Shown here: piece after piece, positions 4,934 to 48,380 of the stretch | Layout of the letters: every line of letters begins with the position of its first letter | Numbering within the stretch: the stretch's first letter is position 1 | Assembly: GCA_020047785.1 (NCBI GenBank) | Contig: JAIFNI010000061.1 | Location: forward strand, 1 to 57,129 | DNA from: Clostridia bacterium | GTDB taxonomy: Bacteria; Bacillota; Clostridia; DSM-8532 | Direction: 5' to 3' | Length of the DNA: 57,129 nucleotides | The notes under the pieces: model-generated | Told to the model about the DNA's origin: nothing | Database searches by the model: none | What the model saw: the letters and a program-made list of their open reading frames with translations, nothing else | Translations under genes and position numbers: made by a program

Positions 4934-6415
4934 TCAACCTTTTGCCAGAACAGCTTCGAATCTGCCATACCCATCGTCCCAGGCCGACGGGTTCTGCGGT
5001 TCCACTGCCACGGTTTCGACAGAACGTTTGACCAGGGCACGGGCCTCTGCCAAACCTGACAATTCTCCCAGCGCCACCAATTGGCCTGCCAGATTGCCGA
5101 GGGCGGTCGCTTCCGAAGGGCCGGCCAGCACGGGACGATTCAGCGCATCGGCCGTGAACCGGTTCAGCAGCGTATCGCGGGAACCGCCGCCGACGACATG
5201 CAGGACATGCAGGACAGGGATTCGCTTCCCGGTAAGAGATTCCAGTTCTCCGAACGTCTTTCTGTACTTCATGGCCAGACTTTCCAGAATGCATCTGACG
5301 ATGGCACCCTTCGACTCCGGTGCCGGCTGACCCGTGCGCAGGCAGAAATCTCGGATTTTATCGGTCATGTGCCCGGGTTTGCCGAATTCAGGCGCATCCG
5401 GATCGATCAGGCAGCGGAAGGCCGCCTCCTTTTCCGCTGCGGCAGCCAACTCGTCGAACGAGACAACTTCGCCCTTGCGGTCCCAGTCCCGTTTGCATTC
5501 CTGCAGGATCCACAAGCCCATGATGTTCTTCAGCAGCCGTGTCGTGCGGTTCACGCCGCCCTCGTTCGTGACATTCATCCGGAATGCCGCTTCCGTGAGA
5601 ATTGGGGCGGGAAGTTCCACGCCCATCAGCGACCAGGTGCCGCTGGACAGGTAGGCGAAATCCTTGCCGTCGGCTGGAACCGCCACCACAGCGGATGCCG
5701 TGTCATGACCGCCGACGGAAAGAACAGGAATCGGACCAAGACCCAGTTCGGACTGATTCTGACGGGTCAGCACGCCGTTTCGGCAAAGCGGATCAGTCAC
5801 CGGGAGCAGCATATGAACAGGAATGCCCAAAGCGGTCAGCATCTCCGACGCCCATTCCCCGGTTACGGGATTCAACATCTGGGAGGTGGATGCGATGGTG
5901 CGCTCGCAGACCTTTTCACCCGTCAGGAAATATCCCATGAGATCCGGGGTGAAAAGAAGTGTTTCAGCCTGTTCCAGCAGTTCCGGCTGCGACTCCGCCA
6001 ACGCCATGAGGTGATAGAGCGTGTTGATTTCCATGAACTGAATGCCGGTCTGTGCATATATTTTTTCCATGGTGAGCAGGGCGGAAGCTTTTGCCATCTT
6101 CCCGAGGGTCCGCATGTCACGGTAATGGACGGGGTTTCCCAATAAGGCCCCCCGCTTGTCAAGCAGTCCGAAGTCCACCCCCCACGTGTCGATGCCGATG
6201 CCCGACAGGTCCGCATGGCCGGCGCGCTGCGCGGCATACAGTCCCTGCTTCGTTTCATGGAGCAGACGAAGGGTGTCCCAATGCAGCGTATCCCCGACTT
6301 GGACGGGATCGTTGGAAAAGCGCCAGAGCACTTCAGTTTCGAGACGGCTGCCATCGTAATGGCCAAGCACGGCACGGCCGCTGCTGGCTCCGAAATCATA
6401 GGCTAGCATTTTCAT
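4934..6415 (-). CDS. rhaB: Rhamnulokinase (FGGY family)
   Basis: ORF 4934..6442. ATG at 6415 preceded by AGGAGG. N-terminus DFGASSGR and overall FGGY pattern match RhaB. Adjacent to rhaA. Confidence 0.88.
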   Translation of the reverse strand: MKMLAYDFGASSGRAVLGHYDGSRLETEVLWRFSNDPVQVGDTLHWDTLRLLHETKQGLYAAQRAGHADLSGIGIDTWGVDFGLLDKRGALLGNPVHYRDMRTLGKMAKASALLTMEKIYAQTGIQFMEINTLYHLMALAESQPELLEQAETLLFTPDLMGYFLTGEKVCERTIASTSQMLNPVTGEWASEMLTALGIPVHMLLPVTDPLCRNGVLTRQNQSELGLGPIPVLSVGGHDTASAVVAVPADGKDFAYLSSGTWSLMGVELPAPILTEAAFRMNVTNEGGVNRTTRLLKNIMGLWILQECKRDWDRKGEVVSFDELAAAAEKEAAFRCLIDPDAPEFGKPGHMTDKIRDFCLRTGQPAPESKGAIVRCILESLAMKYRKTFGELESLTGKRIPVLHVLHVVGGGSRDTLLNRFTADALNRPVLAGPSEATALGNLAGQLVALGELSGLAEARALVKRSVETVAVEPQNPSAWDDGYGRFEAVLAKG

Positions 6416-6486
6416 GGATTGCCTCCTGTCGGGATGATTCACTTTTTGTCATTTTCCCTGTATTGCGTCGATTTTCCATCTCTCCG

Positions 6487-6550
6487 GGAATGGTTATCTC
6501 TTGGAATGGTTTTCTCCTGGAATGGTTTTCTCTTGGAGTGGTTGGGAAGG
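6487..6550. repeat. Four tandem 16-nt units (GGAATGGTTWTCTCYT, last unit degenerate) upstream of the rhaB operon
   Basis: Units at 6487-6502, 6503-6518, 6519-6534, 6535-6550, read directly. They lie 70-135 nt upstream of the rhaB start, in a divergent intergenic region. Confidence 0.8.
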
Positions 6551-6748
6551 AGACCGTTAGGATTGGGCCCATGACATTCAGCATCCGTTTACAATTTTAC
6601 ATCAGGTTCGGCTTTTCCGCATGGGTCTTTTCTACGATTCTCATCTGTTTTTCGAATGAGTTTCACATGTTCCCTTCGCCAACCACGTATGATATGCTCG
6701 CTTTGTTGATGTCCATGAACGACGCACCATTTCGAAAGGAGCATGCAG

Positions 6749-7434: not shown

Positions 7435-8076
7435 ATGAAAGAAAAAATTCTTCTGAATGAAATCCTTCTGGAAACCACCATGAGTGCACTCAGAAAAAAG
7501 AACTTCGACGTAGTCTGCGCAGATACCCCCCAGGATGCGCTGCGCATCCTGACGGAAACCATCCCGCAGGATTCCAGCATCGGTGTCGGCGGTTCACGCA
7601 CACTCGATCAGATTTCATTTTTCGACACATTCAATGTACAGCATTACCCGAATTATATAGACCGTTACGAAGCGGGCATCAGCGCAGAAACAAAGCGCGA
7701 ACGGGAAATCAGCATGCTGTCCGCGGATGTTTTCGTCAGTTCCTGCAACGGCATCAGCCAGACAGGCGAACTGGTGCTGATAGACGGGAACGGGAACCGC
7801 TGCGGCGGGATGACCTTCGGCCCCAAAAAGCGGATTGTGGTGGCCGGAGTCAACAAAATAGCCGCGGATCTTTCCGCAGCCATGTCAATGGCACAAAACA
7901 GGGCATCCGTCATGAACAATCTGCGTTTTGACACAAAAAATCCATGCACCATCACGGGCCGCTGCATGAACTGCGCGTCCACAAACCGCATCTGCAACGT
8001 CACCACCATCCTGCACCGCGCGGCGCCGGCCGGTTCCATACTGGTTGTGCTGGTCAAGGAAGACCTTGGCTTCTGA
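7435..8076 (+). CDS. LUD-domain (LutC/YkgG-like, DUF162) protein
   Basis: ORF 7276..8076. ATG 7435 follows the repeat tract and an AGGAAAGG RBS. Sequence pattern resembles lactate-utilisation LUD-domain proteins by eye. Confidence 0.7.
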   Translation: MKEKILLNEILLETTMSALRKKNFDVVCADTPQDALRILTETIPQDSSIGVGGSRTLDQISFFDTFNVQHYPNYIDRYEAGISAETKREREISMLSADVFVSSCNGISQTGELVLIDGNGNRCGGMTFGPKKRIVVAGVNKIAADLSAAMSMAQNRASVMNNLRFDTKNPCTITGRCMNCASTNRICNVTTILHRAAPAGSILVVLVKEDLGF

Positions 8077-8092: not shown

Positions 8093-8251
8093 AAAGACTA
8101 CACAGTGCATAGCGCGTTGAATCATTTTCTCGGGAATGAAGGCTATAACATCAAAAAAGGGTATGTCTTTTCGAACGAGAGAGAAGTTCGGCAGAAGGAT
8201 AAAATCACCTGTCTGCCGATATACTTCGTAATGTTTTATAACAGCCCTTAA
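8093..8251 (+). pseudogene. Probable 3' fragment of a DUF4143/AAA ATPase gene (C-terminal ~50 codons only)
   Basis: Translation ...ALNHFLGNEGYNIKKGYVFSNEREVRQKDKITCLPIYFVMFYN resembles the conserved C-terminal tail (..S.L..F...PLY..) seen in the 56298.. copy. AT-rich by eye. No N-terminal part present. Confidence 0.4.
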
Positions 8252-9632: not shown

Positions 9633-10685
9633 TCAAACCCTGCAGGGATTACCGGGTGTTTTCATTCCGGCGGTTTGATAAACCCTGCATGCGTTCTTGA
9701 AAAATACACCTGCGATCTCCTGCCGGGATGCACCGGATTGCTCCAGCGCGTCCAGCATGGCGCGAACCTGTTCGTACAGGAAAAAGGTATAATTTTTCTC
9801 ATCCTCCGGATACGGATGCCTGTTCCATGGAAAATCTTCACGGCAAAGGTTGAAGTACTCGGTTTCCGTCCACTTTCTTTTCCCATGCCACAGCAGAATG
9901 GGCATGTCCGTGCCAAAAAGAATCTGGTCGGTCCGCAGCTGCTGCAGGCCTTCCTGATGAACCGCGGGATTCATGACGGCGGCCGTGTCAAAGTAAAGCG
10001 CCGACTTGTCCGTTCCCAGTTTCCGCAGGCCCTCCCGCAGATACACGACATTGAAGCTCCGTCCGAAATGCGCAATCACCAGTCGAAGTCCGGGGTATTT
10101 CTGTATGATTTCCCGTATCTCACGGATGTTGTCGTCATCCGCCAGACGCCCCTTTCTGGGAAGATGCAGCAGAACCGTCTTGCCATATCGATCCGCCAGC
10201 TTCAGATGATGGTGCGGCAGAAAATCGAAGATGCTGACTTCGGCCCCTTTTTCGGAAGCCGCCATATAGGGATATGGCTTGAATCCTGCGAATTCACCTT
10301 CCAGGAGCTGTTTCTCGACCGATTCCGCATCCCATTCCGGTCTGATGCCCATGAGCGCTGTTACCTTGTTTTCTCCGACCAGGCCCGCGAGGTATGCATT
10401 GTTGGCGGGCATGTCCGCCTCAGCCAATGGCAGGGGCAACGCAAGCATCTTCATCGCGACATCCGGAAACAAAGCTTCATGATATGCCACAGCCTCTTCA
10501 TACGACATCGACATCCCGCATTGAAGCGCCCAATCTCCGGCAACCGTCTGCGCACTCACCTTCTCGACATGTTCCGGCAGATTGAGGTGAACATGGGCGT
10601 CGAAAACAGATTCCGGGAGACGGTTCTCAATATGTTCCGCATAATAGCGCGCATCGTTTTCATCTCTGACAAACCAGCTGTTCAT
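9633..10685 (-). CDS. Amidohydrolase-2 (metal-dependent TIM-barrel hydrolase) family protein
   Basis: 350-aa ORF. FDAHVHL, IAHFG and FGTDMP motifs typical of PF04909-type amidohydrolases. Confidence 0.75.
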   Translation of the reverse strand: MNSWFVRDENDARYYAEHIENRLPESVFDAHVHLNLPEHVEKVSAQTVAGDWALQCGMSMSYEEAVAYHEALFPDVAMKMLALPLPLAEADMPANNAYLAGLVGENKVTALMGIRPEWDAESVEKQLLEGEFAGFKPYPYMAASEKGAEVSIFDFLPHHHLKLADRYGKTVLLHLPRKGRLADDDNIREIREIIQKYPGLRLVIAHFGRSFNVVYLREGLRKLGTDKSALYFDTAAVMNPAVHQEGLQQLRTDQILFGTDMPILLWHGKRKWTETEYFNLCREDFPWNRHPYPEDEKNYTFFLYEQVRAMLDALEQSGASRQEIAGVFFKNACRVYQTAGMKTPGNPCRV

Positions 10686-10750: not shown

Positions 10751-12271
10751 TCAAACCCTCTGTTCATTATTCAGGTCGGGCGTTTCGTTGTTTTCCCTGT
10801 CACAGGCCTCTTCGGCCAGATTCATAGCAAGCCATTTGGCCAGATAACGCCGGTATTTCCGTTGATAGTGGCAGACCAGACCCGTGTCGGCATCCATCCT
10901 GCGGAATCCCTTGCCAAATGCCGATGCCGCCCGTCCGTAATCCGGATGCACCCCTGCCCCCACGGCTGCGATGCAGGCGGCTCCAAGACCGGGCGTATCT
11001 CTGGCATCCAGAATGCCGATGTTCTGTTTTTCACAGACAGCCGCCAGAATGGTTGTCCACGCCAGACTGTTGACGGCGCCGCCCGTTACCCGCAGATCCG
11101 TCACCATGAGGCCACTGGATTCATACTCGTCCAGCGCCATCCGAAGCTGAAAGGCCACGCCCTCCATGCAGGCCAGCGCCAGATCCATCCTGTCCGTATC
11201 GAGATCCATTCCCAGAAAAGCCGCCTTGGCGTTGGTATTCAACGACGGAAAGCAGGCGCCTGCCAAAAAGGGTAAGAAAAAAAGATCCGATGACTTTTCA
11301 ACCCGACACAAGACGCTTCCGTCGATTTCCGCATAACTCCCGCCCGTGATGTTGTTCTTCAACCAATCCAGCGAGGCTCCCGCAGCAGGCAGCGATGCCA
11401 GTGCCCCATACAATCCCGGAATGACATGTGGCCCGGGAGAGATATGGGAAGAGGAAAACACAGGTTGTTCCGACACAGCCATGACAACCCAGGCGGTTCC
11501 CGTGGAAAGCATTGCCTCGCCCGGCTTGAGGATGCCGGCTCCCAACGCGCCGCAATACTGGTCATGCGCGCCATTGTAAACTTTGACCCGTTCGTGCAGG
11601 CCCAGGGATTCCGCCGCCTCTTCTGTCAGGCATCCCAGAAAAGCACCGGTGGGAAGGATTGGCGGCAGCATGGCCGTTTCCATGCCCGCAGCCTTCAGGA
11701 TGGAAGGGTGCCATTGGTTCGTCCCGATATCCATCATCTGACGCATGGCGGCATTGGTGGGGTCAATGGCGATGGCGCCTGTCAGGAAGTGATTCATGAC
11801 CTCCAACGTGGTAACAAAATAGGCGGCTGCCTGAAAAAGGTCCGTTTCATGTTCCGACAACCAAAGTCCCTTTGCCATATCCAGCGAAGCATGCGAAATC
11901 CACCCGGTCGTCCGATAAAGAAATTCGCCTCCGAGCTCCTTTTCCAGTGCATCCCGCTGTTCGACGGCACGCCCATCCATCCAGGTGATGGCTGGCGTCA
12001 GCGGTCGGAACGCCTCGTCCACCAGCAGGGAGCTGGCTGCCTGGGTGGACAGGGACAATGCGCCTATTTCGGAGGGATCCAGTCCCTCGACAGCTTGGCG
12101 GACTGCTTCCGTCATCCCGCGAATCCAGTCCTGCGGGTCCTGTTCCACCCGTCCGCCGGTACCCGTGACGAGACCATATCCCCAATACCCGCTTCCGGCA
12201 GGCATGCCGGATTCGTCCATCACGATGGCTTTGCATCCGGTTGTTCCAACATCGATTCCGATTATCAGCAT
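10751..12271 (-). CDS. FGGY-family carbohydrate kinase (xylulokinase-like)
   Basis: ORF 10751..12289. ATG at 12271 has GGAGAA upstream. N-terminus IGIDVGTTGCKA. Confidence 0.85.
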   Translation of the reverse strand: MLIIGIDVGTTGCKAIVMDESGMPAGSGYWGYGLVTGTGGRVEQDPQDWIRGMTEAVRQAVEGLDPSEIGALSLSTQAASSLLVDEAFRPLTPAITWMDGRAVEQRDALEKELGGEFLYRTTGWISHASLDMAKGLWLSEHETDLFQAAAYFVTTLEVMNHFLTGAIAIDPTNAAMRQMMDIGTNQWHPSILKAAGMETAMLPPILPTGAFLGCLTEEAAESLGLHERVKVYNGAHDQYCGALGAGILKPGEAMLSTGTAWVVMAVSEQPVFSSSHISPGPHVIPGLYGALASLPAAGASLDWLKNNITGGSYAEIDGSVLCRVEKSSDLFFLPFLAGACFPSLNTNAKAAFLGMDLDTDRMDLALACMEGVAFQLRMALDEYESSGLMVTDLRVTGGAVNSLAWTTILAAVCEKQNIGILDARDTPGLGAACIAAVGAGVHPDYGRAASAFGKGFRRMDADTGLVCHYQRKYRRYLAKWLAMNLAEEACDRENNETPDLNNEQRV

Positions 12272-13859: not shown

Positions 13860-15280
13860 GGTCTTGTCCTCCCGATGACCTTCACGTCGAATCCCATCAT
13901 TTCTCCAAAGGGTATCAGGTCATCCAGAACATCCCCGTATACCATGGCCAGATGATGGGTTCCTCCTGCCAGGCTGTATTCCTTCAGGAACGCGGCAATC
14001 GGCAACGCAGGTCTGATCCATCCATGGATGCTGTCGGCCATTTTGTCTTCACTTTTGACATCAAGCACCTCAACACGGCTCAGAATGAGCGTGAACCTTC
14101 CGCCTGCCGACGGGGCCAGATTCACCAGCACCGCGATGCCCGGCATGTACCTGCCATACGCCACCATGGGATTCTTGGCGTCTGTATAGGGAAAATCCAT
14201 CTCCATCAGTCTTGGCCTGCCAGCCGCAATCCTGAGATTCATCTCCCCCATGTGGCTCAGAAACAAGGTGTTTCCCTGCCAGTCCGGGCAGAACATTTCC
14301 GTGAAGGTCGTCTGCGGGTGGATGGATGCCAACGCCCCGATCAAGGCGGCTGTCAGCACATCTCCCTCTCCGGCATACCCGATGCCCTCGGCCATCTGGC
14401 GGCCGGCTTCCAGAAAAGGAACGCATTCGAATCCAGAATTCCGGGTGATGGCAAGGAAATTCACGGTGAACGCGGTCAGCTTCTCCTCCGCTATCCAGTC
14501 CCGAAGCCGAAGCCCCGCCCGAACCGTTCGGTCATGGATGTTTCTATCATAGGAAATCGGCTCGAAATCCCGCAGGTCCCTTTCCATCTCGGCATTGATT
14601 CTTGATTGTGCGAGGATGGACTCCGGCTGGTCATTCCCGATGATGCCGCCCCTCTCCCCCGGAAAAGGAACAACCGTCATGCCGATGCAGTCCTTCAGCT
14701 CCTCGAAGGGAATCTGAAAATCACCCATCCCATCGAACGGCTGACCGACAATGCCGACACGGGCGCTTCGCATCCGTTGCGCGGCACTGGCCGCCATGCA
14801 CAATTTCCCGACCCGGGACAGGACATCGGATTGCTCGAAATGCCCCGCCTCAAGGAAAAACTTCTTCCCGCGGCGAAGGAGCAGGTTGCACATGTCCTGA
14901 ACCCCATGAATGCCATGGTTGTACATGATTTCATCCGGTTCCGTTCCGCTTCCGAAATCCGCTGTTACAGTGGTATCCAGTACGATGAGTGGGACCCTGA
15001 TGCGGCATAGGGCCTCGATGGACTGCAGGGAAGGGGAATAGGCCAGGTGAATCGTGACGACGGCGCAGACTTCTTCCCTTTCGAAGGTATCGACGGCAGT
15101 CCGAAACTCTTCCTCCACCCTGCAGATCGGCACGCAGACCGGGTCCATGCCATGATCGCGGAGGCTGTCCGCCATTTGTGCGTAGATGCCGTTGATGCGT
15201 GGCCGCACTTCCGGACTGGCCGTGTCGTATAGCGCCAGGTACAAAGGCAGCAACCCGATTCGAACTCCTGATCCTGTCAT
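13856..15280 (-). CDS. L-fucose/L-arabinose isomerase family protein
   Basis: 474-aa ORF, GAGGA RBS. N-terminal RIGLLPLYLALYD and overall pattern resemble AraA/FucI-family proteins by eye. Confidence 0.65.
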   Translation of the reverse strand: MTGSGVRIGLLPLYLALYDTASPEVRPRINGIYAQMADSLRDHGMDPVCVPICRVEEEFRTAVDTFEREEVCAVVTIHLAYSPSLQSIEALCRIRVPLIVLDTTVTADFGSGTEPDEIMYNHGIHGVQDMCNLLLRRGKKFFLEAGHFEQSDVLSRVGKLCMAASAAQRMRSARVGIVGQPFDGMGDFQIPFEELKDCIGMTVVPFPGERGGIIGNDQPESILAQSRINAEMERDLRDFEPISYDRNIHDRTVRAGLRLRDWIAEEKLTAFTVNFLAITRNSGFECVPFLEAGRQMAEGIGYAGEGDVLTAALIGALASIHPQTTFTEMFCPDWQGNTLFLSHMGEMNLRIAAGRPRLMEMDFPYTDAKNPMVAYGRYMPGIAVLVNLAPSAGGRFTLILSRVEVLDVKSEDKMADSIHGWIRPALPIAAFLKEYSLAGGTHHLAMVYGDVLDDLIPFGEMMGFDVKVIGRTRP

Positions 15281-15306
15281 CTCTTCATCCTCTCTTCATC
15301 CTCGCT

Positions 15307-16434
15307 TCATCCTCTTCCGACCTTCCGATAATGGTTGAATCCGTCCACAGCGGTCCTGATGTTTTCCCAGGGTGTTCCAGGCGCACATGAACTGGACATG
15401 GACAGGAACAAACCGGTTTCAGGGCCGTTCTCCACGAGAAAGCGCATTTGTCGGCGGACATCCTCCGGTTTTCCCAACGGCAGCTCCCGTGTCACGGACA
15501 CGCCGGCCTGAATCACCAGAGAATGGCCTTCCCGATCCTTCATCCGGCAGATTTTCACATAATCCATACCGTCTTCGTACTGGAATCCCTGAAAGCCATT
15601 CACTCCGGATTCCAATAGAAGCGGGAACAAATCCATCAGATTTCCATCGCAATGCCACAGGAGTGTGAACCCCGCATCCACCGCCGGTTTGATGGACCGG
15701 GCGAAGTGACCGGCCCATGACCGTTCCAGAGATGCCGGACTGACCAGCAGACCCCTCGAATCCGCCATGTCGTGATCCAACCGATGATACAGCGGAAGTC
15801 CGGCCCATTGGAACGCCTTGACCACCGCCCGGTTGTGCAGGACCGCATATTCCGCCTGCAATCCGAACAGGCGGTCCATCACTTCGGGATATAGAACATA
15901 AGCCATCAGAAAGCTTTCATAACCGTACCGGTAATAGGCAAGCTGGGGAAAAAGCAGATGATCGTATCCCGCCTTGAGGATGTCGGGTCCAAGAAGCCGC
16001 TGTGCCTGGGATTCCAATGTGACAACATCCTGAATGACCTGCCTTTCATCGAAGCACCGGATTTGTTTTTCCAGCAACGGAAACGCAAACCGTTCCAAAT
16101 GCGCCACACAAGCTTCCGGAGAGTCAATCACCATGCCATCCAGTTCAGGAATGCCGCCGGTGGTTGCGCCGCCGCCCCCGCCTTCATACCCCTTGTCTCC
16201 CATCGACAGGGGGTTTTCCGCCAGCATCTGATCCACCATGTTGACGCCGATCTGTTCCAGCATCCTCATGTATACGCCATACGGGTCTTTTGCGTATTCC
16301 CCGGGTTCCGCGCACGCCAGTCGTTCTATCATGCCGTGCTCCATCACATGGACCAGACCGGTGGGAATCCCTTTTGTCTTTTCCCTATGGAGCGTGTCCA
16401 ATGCCAGCTGCATGCTTTGTGAACAAGTCGGCAT
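15307..16434 (-). CDS. Uroporphyrinogen-decarboxylase (URO-D) fold family protein, function unknown
   Basis: 375-aa ORF, GGGAGG RBS. C-terminal half LLWHCDGNLMDLFPLLLESGVNGFQ typical of URO-D/MtaA-like TIM barrels. Confidence 0.6.
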   Translation of the reverse strand: MPTCSQSMQLALDTLHREKTKGIPTGLVHVMEHGMIERLACAEPGEYAKDPYGVYMRMLEQIGVNMVDQMLAENPLSMGDKGYEGGGGGATTGGIPELDGMVIDSPEACVAHLERFAFPLLEKQIRCFDERQVIQDVVTLESQAQRLLGPDILKAGYDHLLFPQLAYYRYGYESFLMAYVLYPEVMDRLFGLQAEYAVLHNRAVVKAFQWAGLPLYHRLDHDMADSRGLLVSPASLERSWAGHFARSIKPAVDAGFTLLWHCDGNLMDLFPLLLESGVNGFQGFQYEDGMDYVKICRMKDREGHSLVIQAGVSVTRELPLGKPEDVRRQMRFLVENGPETGLFLSMSSSCAPGTPWENIRTAVDGFNHYRKVGRG

Positions 16435-23951: not shown

Positions 23952-24026
23952 CTATACCTATCCTCTAATTGCGCAGCAATTAGAGGTCTTCCTGGTGATT
24001 CAAGGCGAAGCATCAAGGGTCTATCC
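23952..24026 (-). repeat. Single unit of the GGRTAGACC / ATGCTTCGCYTTGAATCACCAG / variable-hairpin repeat family
   Basis: Reverse complement reads GGATAGACC CTTG ATGCTTCGCCTTGAATCACCAG GAAGA CCTCTAATTGC tgc GCAATTAGAGG ATAGGTATAG. Hairpin at 23962-23986 (11 bp perfect, 3-nt loop). Confidence 0.8.
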
Positions 24027-37856: not shown

Positions 37857-38711
37857 TCATTCCTGCGGGACAGCATCTCGGCCATCCAGTATGAAGTCGC
37901 AAGCGTCCTTGATATGGAAAGACGCAAAATAGTGTTCTTCCTTGGGAATCCATTCTTCAAGAAAACGCTTGTGACGTTCCGGTCCATTTCGCATCAGGAT
38001 TCGGGCACTCTGCGTTTCCGCATCCAATGAGAGAAACACGGTGAGATCCCAGGCTGCCGCCAGGGCTGGATGCAGGCAATAAGCTCCTTCCACAATGGAC
38101 AGACGGGTAGGTTTGACCTGTACGGGTACACTGAGAGACATGCTGGAACAATCATATGCTTTTGCATAAAACGGTTTCCCTGACTGCAACCCCATGATGA
38201 CCTCTTCCCGGAACCGTTCCCGGTCCACATTCCCGCCTGGCTCCGCCAGCCGTTCGGAGGTCCGCTGACATGCTTGAAGAAAATAATCATCCATGTGAAA
38301 AACCGTACCGCCATATTTCCCTGCAAGCCATCGCGCAAGCGTCGTTTTGCCTGCGGCAAAGATCTGCCACGTGAACGGAGTCCCTCCGAGACCATACAAG
38401 GCAAGCGCCGCGATGCCCCAGATTGCCCGTCCGCCAATCATGGCAAGGACAAGAGAAACGCATGCATACAATATTTTCCTGGGAAAGAGCCGGTGGAAAA
38501 AACCTGCAAGCAAGCCATAGGAAGCCAGTTCGAACGCCATGGCGAGAGCGGTTGGAAACAGGGGGGGCATGCCAAACAGCAGACTTCGGAGCAATGGGGT
38601 CATCAATCCGACGATTAGGCCATATGGTCCTCCGCAGACAAATCCGCACAGAAGGACGGGTAAATGAAATGCATGGGTAGACCACACATGCTTCGCCTCA
38701 AACACCAGCAA
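37857..38711 (-). pseudogene. Chimeric remnant: 5'-truncated ECF-transporter S-component fused in frame to a P-loop (uridine-kinase-like) kinase lacking the first half of its Walker A motif
   Basis: No ATG start (frame opens with TTG inside the repeat element). TM-rich HLPVLLCGFVCGGPYGL... runs directly into ...IFAAGKTTLARW...FHMDDYF. The first ~12 codons are encoded by the repeat unit at 38675-38711. Confidence 0.55.
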
Positions 38712-38886
38712 ATCCCTATAAATACACCCTAGTCTTTGCGTTTATGTTGCTCGTTCGGTGTATTTATAGGGTAGACCCCTGATGCTTCGCTTTGAATCAC
38801 CAGCAATTCCCTGTAAATGCGTCAATAATCATTCGTGTTCCGTTATCTGTTCGACGCATGTTCGACGCATTTACAGGATAGAAGCC
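38675..38886 (+). repeat. Two tandem units of the GGRTAGACC / ATGCTTCGCYTTGAATCACCAG / variable-hairpin repeat family
   Basis: Unit 1 is 38675-38777 (stem 38714-38728 / 38757-38771). Unit 2 is 38769-38886 (stem 38809-38823 / 38864-38877). The units share the GGGTAGACC junction. Confidence 0.8.
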
Positions 38887-38894
38887 GTTTCTCT

Positions 38895-40646
38895 TCATTC
38901 GTGCCGTATGCTCCGAATGCTCCGCATCTGCAGCTGTATCGTACGAATTGCCTTGAGCCCTGATGGCGCAACACTGACCCTCGTGCCGCGCCCATCCTCC
39001 TCAGAACTGCCATGCAACGGAATTGTATTCGAACCGTCAGCCTCCTCCAGCATCGAGACAAGCTGTCCAGGTATCCAGAGAACCGTATCCTGCGTGGAAT
39101 CATCCTCTTTCCAACTGCAGGAAAACACTCCGGTCTCCGGTTCCCATCGGTAGGACAGGAGCATTCCCGCCACAGATTCCGGCACACCGCGTACAATGGC
39201 ATCGCTGTATCGGAACCCGTCGATGTTCTGCGCGTTCAGACCTGCATCCGGGTAAGCCCAGAAAGTGTCTCCACACCGGCATGTCTCAAAGATCCGCCGA
39301 AGCTGATCTCCCTGTTCTTTTGTTCCACAACCACGTCCTTCTTCTCCCTGCCAGAATGCCCCCCACTCCCCCACCAGCATCGGCCAGCCGGTTGTTGCCC
39401 GTACTTCCTCATGCCGGTCGAAGATGACCGCCACGCGCGCAGGACTCCAAAGGTCATTCTGCTCGGTGTCCACAATGAGGTCATACCCATGAGGCGAATA
39501 GATCTGCTGAGGGTCGCGCCGACCGTTGCGCAGGACAGGCACGATTCCGCTCCGCACACCCATGTTGCTGAAATAGCTGGCTTCCAGAAGCAGGATGGAT
39601 TCGGTATCAACCTCCCGGATGGCGTCGGCCACCCGCTGATAGAAGGGAGACAATGAATCCCGATCGAATGGCTGCAGTTGCGGCTCCATTGAAGCTGCGA
39701 TCCTTTCGTAAACCGGACGTTCGGAGAGCAGCCCCAGCACATGCGCCCGGCCCGCGGGGTCCGCCCAGGCAGCGGCCAGGCCGGCCAATTGCGCATCGTC
39801 GGTTCCGCCTGAAGATCCAAGAGGCATATCCCCGGAAACATCCGTCCACGCTTCCGTTCCTGCAACCACAGCAGGATCCGCTCCTTCCGATGCCTGCCAG
39901 TCGGCAAACGCACCGAGCATGCAGGCCTGTACTTCCATGGCCAGTGTTCCAGGAAAAGGCTCATTAATCAGATCGTACCCAATGACATGTTCATACGCGC
40001 CGAATCGTTCGGCCACACGTCTCCAGGCTTGCGCATAATGGTCCTGAAGGCCGATGCCGTCCGGACCGGGCGCATTCTCCCAGAACCGATCGAAAGCCTG
40101 TTGAACGGCCTCACTGTTGAGATACGCATCGCTCCAGACACTGCCGGATGCATCATGCCGGCTCATGTCGCTCAGGGTCGCCCACCGGGGAGCGCCATCG
40201 CCGAAAGCGATACCATACAAATCCTGATGCATGTCGAGGAATACACGGATGCCGGCTTCTTCGGCAAGCCGAATCATGCCTTCCATCCTGTCGAGGTACG
40301 TTTCATCGATGCGTCCCGGTTCCGGCTCCAATCCATCCCAAATCAGACCAAGCCGCACCACATTCATCCCACGGGACCGCAGGAAACGGAAGTCTTCCGG
40401 TTTCCAATCGCCGACATACCCGCGCGACTTGTCCTTGCAGACCATGTTTACGCCGTGCAGCACCACTTGCCGGCCTTGCCTGTCCAGAAGCCGGTCTCCT
40501 GCCACCTGCAGTTTGCCGGCACCTTCATGCCCGCATCCCTCGCTGCTTCCACTTCTGTCGCTCTTTTCATTTCCCGCATTCTTTGCACTGCTGTCATTCG
40601 TGCAGCTTCTGTCGCTCTTTCCATTTCCGTCATTCATTCTGTCCAT
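38895..40646 (-). CDS. Glycoside hydrolase family 5 (endoglycoceramidase/glucanase-like), cytoplasmic
   Basis: 583-aa ORF, AAGGGGG RBS. LINEPF (acid/base) and GEWGAF (nucleophile) motifs. Low-complexity N-terminus, no signal peptide. Confidence 0.85.
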   Translation of the reverse strand: MDRMNDGNGKSDRSCTNDSSAKNAGNEKSDRSGSSEGCGHEGAGKLQVAGDRLLDRQGRQVVLHGVNMVCKDKSRGYVGDWKPEDFRFLRSRGMNVVRLGLIWDGLEPEPGRIDETYLDRMEGMIRLAEEAGIRVFLDMHQDLYGIAFGDGAPRWATLSDMSRHDASGSVWSDAYLNSEAVQQAFDRFWENAPGPDGIGLQDHYAQAWRRVAERFGAYEHVIGYDLINEPFPGTLAMEVQACMLGAFADWQASEGADPAVVAGTEAWTDVSGDMPLGSSGGTDDAQLAGLAAAWADPAGRAHVLGLLSERPVYERIAASMEPQLQPFDRDSLSPFYQRVADAIREVDTESILLLEASYFSNMGVRSGIVPVLRNGRRDPQQIYSPHGYDLIVDTEQNDLWSPARVAVIFDRHEEVRATTGWPMLVGEWGAFWQGEEGRGCGTKEQGDQLRRIFETCRCGDTFWAYPDAGLNAQNIDGFRYSDAIVRGVPESVAGMLLSYRWEPETGVFSCSWKEDDSTQDTVLWIPGQLVSMLEEADGSNTIPLHGSSEEDGRGTRVSVAPSGLKAIRTIQLQMRSIRSIRHE

Positions 40647-46525: not shown

Positions 46526-46730
46526 ATGATTCTCGTACACAAAGTCGATTTTCGACTTTTTCATGCAAGTTGCAGAATGCAACTTGCATGCTTGTGGCGA
46601 CATTGTCGCCACAAGGCACGGAATCACATGATTCGGTGTGTGAATGACACATATTGTGCCATTCACATGCAGGATTCCAGAGGAATCCTGCATAACAACT
46701 CGCAAAAGCGAGTTGTTACACCAGAATCAT
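46526..46730. other. Multi-hairpin structured element, copy A (seven abutting stem-loops inside an 8-bp closing helix)
   Basis: Closing helix 46526-46533 / 46723-46730. H1 46541-46559, H2 46562-46590, H3 46591-46615, H4 46617-46638, H5 46640-46666, H6 46667-46693, H7 46694-46717. All read directly. Confidence 0.85.
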
Positions 46731-48167: not shown

Positions 48168-48380
48168 AAGCTTGATTCTCGTGCAAAAAGTCGTTTTTCG
48201 ACTTTTTCATGCAAGTTGCGATTCGCAACTTGCATGCCTACAGCGGCGATGCCGCTGTAGGGCACGGAATCACGTGATTCGGTGTGTAAATGACACCATC
48301 GGTGTCATTTACATGCAGGATTCCTTTGGAATCCTGCATAACAACTCGCAAATGCGAGTTGTTACACCAGAATCAAGCTT
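48168..48380. other. Multi-hairpin structured element, copy B (same seven stem-loops inside a 12-bp closing helix)
   Basis: Closing helix 48168-48179 / 48369-48380. H1 48185-48207, H2 48208-48236, H3 48237-48261, H4 48263-48284, H5 48286-48312, H6 48313-48339, H7 48340-48363. Confidence 0.85.

Follow-up and report, generated by a model that had tools for sequence, protein, structure and literature searches.

A lineage-specific family of interspersed repeats with a conserved head and exchangeable hairpins in Clostridia from microbial mats

The DNA analysed here (the window) is a contig of 57,129 nt, JAIFNI010000061.1, from the Clostridia bacterium assembly GCA_020047785.1. This assembly is a metagenome-assembled genome (MAG) of 3.92 Mb in 332 contigs, 75% complete; we call it G000, and the window is its contig C284. 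At positions 38675-38886 the window carries an array of two repeat units, arranged head to tail and joined at a common GRTAGA junction, and one further unit of the same family stands alone on the opposite strand, beginning 4 nt past the stop codon of the upstream gene (Table 1). A first inspection of the letters, made without database searches (the sequence-only reading), had described the array as a conserved core followed by a hairpin in each unit, with GGRTAGA common to neighbouring units. Both units and the junction between them were found as described. One end of the array overlaps an open reading frame (ORF) with an energy-coupling factor (ECF) S-component part, and the stop codon of a GH5 glycoside hydrolase gene lies 12 nt from the hairpin at the other end.

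Table 1. Positions of the array, its parts and other features (window coordinates unless a contig is named)
Feature	Position	Strand	Remarks
Unit 1	38675-38773	+	Head 38675-38713, GGGTAGACC-ACAC-ATGCTTCGCCTCAAACACCAG-CAAAT, then hairpin module of subtype D
Unit 1 head dyad	38689-38704		Counterpart of the unit 2 head dyad
Unit 1 hairpin	38714-38728 / 38757-38771	+	Perfect inverted repeat, 15 bp, 28-nt loop
Unit 2	38769-38882	+	Head 38769-38809; closed by ATAGA at 38878-38882; GGGTAGA common with the end of unit 1
Unit 2 head dyad	38783-38799	+	Imperfect, TGCTTC-GCTTT-GAATCA; TGCTTCG-N3-CGAATCA type
Unit 2 hairpin	38810-38823 / 38864-38877	+	Perfect inverted repeat, 14 bp, 40-nt loop
11-nt tandem duplication	38848-38858 + 38859-38869	+	TGTTCGACGCA x2, inside the unit 2 loop
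Solo unit of the same family	23957-24025	-	Short module of subtype A, CCTCTAATTGC-TGC-GCAATTAGAGG
ORF, pseudogene remnant	37857-38711	-	ECF S-component part fused in frame to a uridine-kinase-like kinase
GH5 glycoside hydrolase gene	38895-40646	-	Context only, outside the element
PPK2 insert (locus L088)	G000 C34:15238-15369		Two 63-nt short units, in frame and antisense, in gene 14523-16154 (-)

Two families of direct repeats run through the array with a spacing of 94-95 nt (GGGTAGACC...ATGCTTCGC and AAWCACCAGCAAWTCCCTRTAAAT), and a degenerate pattern of the core matches the window twice (at 38782 on the plus strand and at 23992 on the minus strand), against an expectation of 0 from 100 shuffles. 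Both hairpins are perfect inverted repeats, and the differences between their stems (A to G, ACACC to GCGTC) are mirrored on the opposite arm. These paired differences, which had been taken as divergence between adjacent copies, are real, but the two units did not diverge side by side: they represent two module subfamilies, each present at other loci. The subtype D module of unit 1 is also found on G000 contigs C265, C261, C297, C266 and C52, while unit 2 has a near-identical twin at C296:12181. The 11 letters at 38848, which form half of the duplication in the unit 2 loop, are missing from contigs of runs X1, X2 and X4 of the same natural mat population, so the ancestral loop of unit 2 was 29 nt long, as in other units. 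Another strain-level indel near the array, a 9-nt deletion at 38917, was seen in one run.

The sequence-only reading had also proposed that the pair belongs to a second dispersed repeat family in this genome, and this is what the copy search showed. Using an iterated nhmmer profile of the 52-nt head against G000, we obtained 63 head copies on about 45 contigs, 51 of them scoring at least 40 bits, so that the family is found genome-wide rather than at this locus only; it also has copies in two sister species. Since the repeat breaks short-read assemblies (18 of the head copies lie no more than 300 nt from a contig end), the true copy number is higher than 63, and the repeat accounts for fragmented assemblies in this microbial-mat lineage. 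BLAST with the 212-nt array found dozens of places in G000, near-identical copies occur at unlinked loci, and more copies were present on unbinned contigs of the source metagenome and in one other mat metagenome.

The range of the family is narrow and lineage-specific. Three of the seven genomes of the genus carry it, namely G000 and two (G001 and G003) of the six sister species, G001 to G006, and all 34 genomes sampled elsewhere in the class, from other genera, families and orders, lack it. When the exact head pattern was searched in one genome from each of 185,579 species, the matches were confined to two sister MAGs, labelled 'uncultured Oscillospiraceae bacterium' and 'Clostridiaceae bacterium', plus three single chance matches in other phyla. 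The carrier DNA derives from microbial-mat metagenomes. Searches of plasmid and phage collections gave no match to the family; the whole window gave none in Rfam at gathering thresholds, and the interval 38000-39500, searched at E values up to 10, gave only two noise matches. Comparison with Rfam, with repetitive extragenic palindromes (REPs) and with MITEs (miniature inverted-repeat transposable elements), which the sequence-only reading had proposed, matched no described family, and a REP-associated tyrosine transposase (RAYT) partner was not found. The family is previously undescribed, but of a familiar element kind.

Across the family a unit opens with G[GA]TAGAC and continues with five variable bases, ATGCTTCGC, a stretch of three or four variable bases, (G)AATCACCAG, one of CAATT, CAAAT or GAAG, a hairpin, and a terminal G[GA]TAGA that in an array doubles as the opening motif of the unit after it. 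The head (about 40 nt) is nearly invariant, and holds an imperfect dyad, ATGCTTCG-N3-CGAATCACCAG, after its five variable bases. In alignment A1, which covers three species, the head shows 14 invariant and 20 nearly invariant columns; orthologous coding DNA of the same species is only about 75-80% identical, and the head is thus more conserved than neighbouring coding DNA. Its dyad is the most conserved part of the family, with columns 13-34 invariant or nearly so, and RNAalifold pairs columns 14-20 with 24-30 around a conserved C.U (C.T) mismatch, with zero covariation. To this same head at least five types of hairpin module are joined in G000: a short one, CCTCTAATTGC-TGC-GCAATTAGAGG, found in units of 63 nt, and four long ones with loops of 22-32 nt, the loop being conserved within each module. 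The sister species add further modules, such as CCTGTATTTGTGC/GCACAAATACAGG. Stems measure 11-15 bp, loops 3 or 22-32 nt, and units 63-105 nt, with a G+C content of 45%, compared with 55% for the genome. No ORFs were found in the units. A short peptide read from the invariant ATG was considered and rejected, since its fourth codon is free to vary (G, L, F, H) and changes at the variable head positions are not synonymous in that frame; that unit lengths are mostly not multiples of three also counts against it.

The claim that the hairpins covary was examined with the 57 distinct long-hairpin units of alignment A1. Ten of the 13 stem pairs have changed on both sides, 91.5% of cells are paired, and the covariation score was reached by none of 500 shuffles; when the partner was slid by 1-3 columns, pairing fell to 28-40%. 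RNAalifold recovers the same helix independently, and compensated variants of the short module exist too (contigs C71 and C99). Since one or two stem mismatches are present in about 40% of units, the arms are not automatically kept perfect. Stem pairing in this family is maintained by compensated change, as had been suspected from the two units of the array, and the compensated changes extend family-wide.

Evidence that the units reach new sites comes from a gene outside the window. In G000 two short units lie within a PPK2 (polyphosphate kinase 2) gene encoding a two-domain protein of 543 residues, and lengthen its inter-domain linker by about 42 residues (LLSSNCAAIRGLPDDSRRSNKG...). The insert is missing at the same site in all five of the other genus genomes in which the region is assembled (G001, G003, G004, G005 and G006); G002, with only the C-terminal PPK2 part assembled, stands outside this comparison. 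Four of these relatives have a short linker and one has an unrelated low-complexity linker, and the site is empty even in the two sister carriers of the family. The dimer is present only in G000 and the orthologous site of these relatives is empty; this difference shows one insertion, at a position resolved to within a few bases.

The arrays are mosaic. In 13 of 15 adjacent unit pairs the two units differ in loop type, so the arrays are not simple local duplications; only two arrays are homotypic, both in sister species. A dimer of types D and B recurs at three loci whose flanks differ. On the left side of 68 first or solo units there is a weak consensus, TTnCAG/GRTAGAC (the slash marks the boundary), that looks like a hairpin arm's end running into the junction. 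In one orthologous spacer, G000 C261:12367-12562 and positions 7878-7982 of locus L072 (sister MAG CAZFWQ010000129), both genomes are occupied and the heads are identical, while the hairpin modules differ, with two units in G000 and at least one in the sister, whose contig stops 18 nt upstream of the unit. Such a pattern points to replacement of the module or to more than one insertion at this place. Recombination between units is an alternative for the growth of arrays. The sole inverted arrangement seen lies at G000 C225:15115-15293, where two units stand head to head with CCAT between them.

Taken together, we consider it probable that both units of the array belong to an interspersed DNA repeat that is lineage-specific, non-coding and non-autonomous. 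A trans-acting enzyme, not encoded by the element, would copy units to new sites; the invariant head would be its recognition site, and the hairpin, in the form of RNA, single-stranded DNA or cruciform DNA, would be required for copying, which could explain why only its pairing, and not its sequence, is conserved. New units would land preferentially by a TTnCAG/GR-like sequence, such as stands at the 3' end of each unit, and with such a landing preference arrays would grow head to tail from unlike units. Effects on neighbouring genes, for example that of a stable hairpin in the 3' untranslated region of the GH5 gene, would be a by-product.

Several results weigh against this interpretation, and the first of them concerns orientation. 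Using a simple codon-usage gene caller, we placed about 32 copies in co-directional spacers, 21 in divergent and about 6 in convergent ones, at distances of 4 to more than 400 nt from the flanking gene, and the neighbouring genes share no common function. In the co-directional spacers the head strand is the gene strand in 24-26 cases and the opposite strand in 7 (binomial p ~0.003), and about 47 of about 62 classified copies point at the start of a co-oriented gene, several of them 11-40 nt from that start; the array at 38675-38886 has the minority orientation. This bias, together with the rarity of convergent spacers (about 6 of about 60), could mean an RNA-level or regulatory role instead of pure parasitism. 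The units might accordingly be functional structured RNA elements that the host recruited upstream of many genes, whether as small RNAs, as signals for mRNA processing or stabilisation, or as portable 5' leaders; in the transcript, the head would bind protein or RNA and the hairpin would be a structural module. The strong covariation of the hairpin and the conservation of the head beyond that of adjacent coding DNA speak for such elements, as does the folding of the array, both strands of which fold better than shuffled sequence (z = -3.5 and -5.0). Yet the genes beside the copies are functionally unrelated, some copies sit in convergent spacers and two in the PPK2 gene, in frame and antisense, units are stacked as mosaics, near-identical copies sit at unlinked loci, and the family is missing from four of the seven species of the genus. 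There is also no Rfam match, and the array region contains no promoter-like site and one weak terminator-like site, at the pseudogene junction. The orientation bias, moreover, is real but ambiguous. It could reflect RNA-level selection or, just as well, insertion with a preference relative to the replication fork, in a genome where most genes face one way; a fragmented MAG does not allow the two to be told apart. On balance we regard a recruited RNA element as unlikely. A promoter or terminator role for the array was likewise tried and rejected, given the absence of promoter-like sites and the single weak terminator-like site in its region. Among RNA sequencing runs, none was found to contain the region.

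The wobble-type mismatches of the stems were also examined for a strand signal. They are A.C only in G000, and A.C 23 versus G.T 12 in the relatives, where the two become about equal once one stem-end pair is set aside; no consistent strand emerged, and an assignment on this basis was rejected. Nucleotide-exact empty sites, sought in the flanks of sister species mapped to G000 and in Logan contigs, numbered none, since intergenic DNA between the sisters is too diverged and the Logan contigs break inside the repeat and provide no joints. A candidate empty site, from the comparison of L046 with C305, has a replaced and unalignable spacer. In the Logan contigs of the natural population the 11-nt loop duplication was the only variation seen in the presence/absence check, and the left and right end variants of the same unit, compared as a check for target-site duplication, are uncorrelated.

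The last group of adverse results concerns the enzyme. Genes matching PF01797 (Y1, RAYT/IS200) are absent from G000 and G001, both carriers of the family, and occur in the non-carriers G002 and G004 and in the carrier G003, so that Y1 genes do not follow the distribution of the repeat in the genus; nor does any head copy lie near a Y1 gene. Self-comparison of the 2-kb flanks of the copies, aimed at a larger element around them, turned up only an unrelated repeat of about 100 nt, and a whole-genome self-megablast of G000 gave no multi-copy repeats the size of an insertion sequence (IS). These negatives are limited by MAGs that are 75-91% complete and by the poor assembly of IS elements.

That same incompleteness leaves some room for the proposal that the units are strict REPs, GTAG-tagged palindromes moved by a RAYT (TnpA_REP) missing from the incomplete assemblies, of which G000 is only 75% complete. 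GGTAGA stands at the hairpin foot and at the head start in just over half of the units, copies are numerous and extragenic, and copies inside genes are known for REPs (PMC3733652). The tag varies, however: before AGAC, the 68 first or solo units have G in 54, then G in 38 or A in 26, then T in 51 or C in 12, giving an end consensus G[GA][TC]AGA at both unit ends in which GTAG is common but not fixed, and GATAG, GGCAG and AGCAG are frequent. REPs are palindromes of 20-40 bp (PMC3733652), whereas the units here measure 63-105 nt and a head of 38-40 nt, outside the main palindrome, precedes the stem. All arrays except that on C225 run head to tail rather than as inverted dimers, no cognate RAYT flanked by repeats was found, and the presence of Y1 genes is uncoupled from the repeat. 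We therefore judge strict REPs very unlikely.

A variant of the non-autonomous repeat interpretation, which we hold to be unlikely, specifies the enzyme more closely. The head would be the recognition site of an undescribed, non-Y1 enzyme common to the three carriers, either a single-strand DNA enzyme or a site-specific recombinase, that adds cassettes singly at a self-regenerating junction (...CAG/GRTAGA). If this were true, an enzyme working one cassette at a time would produce mosaic arrays, head to tail and with a preference for one strand, and would account for the lack of inverted ends, the heterotypic arrays and the bias in orientation.

Among known repeats, the closest in architecture are the BOX elements of Streptococcus pneumoniae, and REP clusters, or bacterial interspersed mosaic elements (BIMEs), are also close. 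BOX elements are built as boxA-boxB(n)-boxC, with terminal inverted repeats, a fixed A...C frame and repeated B modules (PMC3049150). Like the present family they are small, non-coding, modular interspersed repeats, whose tandem modules vary in number and type by locus and are predicted to form stable stem-loops, some copies lie in open frames, they have no transposase of their own, and they are confined to a narrow group of related species. In the present family, by contrast, a whole head and one hairpin make up each unit, and the ends are direct (GRTAGA...GRTAGA) and not inverted. The hosts also differ, streptococci as against uncultured Oscillospiraceae-like mat Clostridia of another phylum-level lineage; the likeness is architectural only, and we set the two apart by description. 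With REPs and BIMEs the family has in common high-copy extragenic hairpins that keep their pairing while the sequence drifts, a GTAG-like tag at the hairpin foot, mosaic clusters with linker motifs, occasional in-frame genic copies and lineage-specific families (PMC3733652, PMC2817692, PMC8266576). REPs, however, are G+C-rich, usually form inverted pairs and favour positions downstream of genes, in convergent or co-directional spacers, whereas the present units are A+T-richer than the genome, head to tail, and rare between convergent genes.

Other kinds of repeat match in fewer respects. Classical MITEs (Correia, RUP, Nezha) are, like these units, shorter than 300 bp, non-coding, A+T-richer than the host, strongly folded and dispersed, with evidence of insertion; the family is likewise small, non-coding and dispersed, with a presence/absence difference between relatives, but it lacks terminal inverted repeats, and an IS related to it through matching ends was not found. 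The mycobacterial interspersed repetitive units (MIRUs), as Supply and colleagues reportedly described them in 1997, are head-to-tail intergenic arrays of units of about 50-100 bp, mostly co-oriented with the flanking genes and variable in number. They are also said to occupy operon spacers and to contain short ORFs that overlap the flanking stop and start codons. Head-to-tail intergenic arrays, a similar unit length and co-orientation with flanking genes are common to both, but the present units also occur in divergent and convergent spacers, follow no stop/start overlap rule and have a covarying hairpin. Rickettsia palindromic elements (RPEs) are palindromic repeats that lie in frame in protein genes and are translated as an extra peptide (PMC3733652), as the PPK2 linker units are with their 42 extra residues; this is the single such case in a family that is otherwise intergenic, and there is no sequence relation.

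The frame on the minus strand next to the array deserves separate comment, since the sequence-only reading placed the array at the 5' end of the ECF S-component gene and saw it as supplying the first codons. The truncation and the abutment are real, and the frame does open inside unit 1, with a TTG at 38711. The Pfam ECF_trnsprt match covers only profile positions 29-141 of 169 and is followed by the kinase match. At the homologous place in the sister G004 (locus L083, G004:C212, 553-1924) there are two intact, separate genes, encoding an S-component of 178 residues and a uridine-kinase-like kinase of 214 residues. Compared with these, the G000 S-component is without its first ~37 codons, its homology starting at CCCATGCAT, at the very edge of unit 1. 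An apparent 5-nt duplication of CATTT is present at ~38660-38670, and an in-frame deletion of about 355 nt has taken out the tail of the S-component gene and the beginning of the kinase gene, leaving FAAGKTT where G004 has GRSASGKST and hence an incomplete Walker A motif. Judged by this comparison with the intact G004 genes, the ORF is a decayed pseudogene remnant, and the TTG inside unit 1 is not a real start, nor are its following codons functional first codons. The array marks one break point in the decay of the locus and serves no dedicated function in it.

Riboswitch control is common among ECF S-component genes. The array, directly 5' of the S-component frame on the minus strand and with a covarying helix in both units, could for that reason be imagined as a leader of this gene, such as a tandem riboswitch. 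The same units, however, stand at more than 45 loci beside unrelated genes, no covariance model of a riboswitch or other Rfam leader matches even at E values up to 10, the intact G004 orthologue has a different upstream region without a repeat unit, and the G000 gene is itself a pseudogene lacking its first ~37 codons. The copy distribution effectively refutes a leader, whose probability we put close to nil.

For annotation, these results carry a warning, as the ORF at 37857-38711 is a pseudogene that 'starts' in a repeat, and the PPK2 linker of G000 is repeat-derived. Small interspersed hairpin repeats, so far known mainly in Proteobacteria, streptococci and mycobacteria, also gain a family from the Clostridia. 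Its build is uncommon, with a fixed head and swappable hairpins, direct ends, mosaic tandem arrays and no recognisable transposase partner. It opens no new kind of system, but is a reasonable test case for the copying of such elements.

G000 holds at least three small repeat families. One is the hairpin element present in the window at 46567-46729 and 48213-48376. A copy of this element (78-81% identity) was also seen in a sister MAG (locus L061, JANYKF010000513), about 150-500 nt to the left of a unit of the present family at 644-748, and the two families therefore co-occur across species. The third, an unrelated interspersed repeat of about 100 nt with 77-89% identity between copies, was seen on comparing the flanks of the copies, and lies in G000 at C249:~6526-6621, C249:~8132-8224, C331:~6388-6489, C261:~10388-10488, C53:~1206-1309 and C296:~10755-10853.

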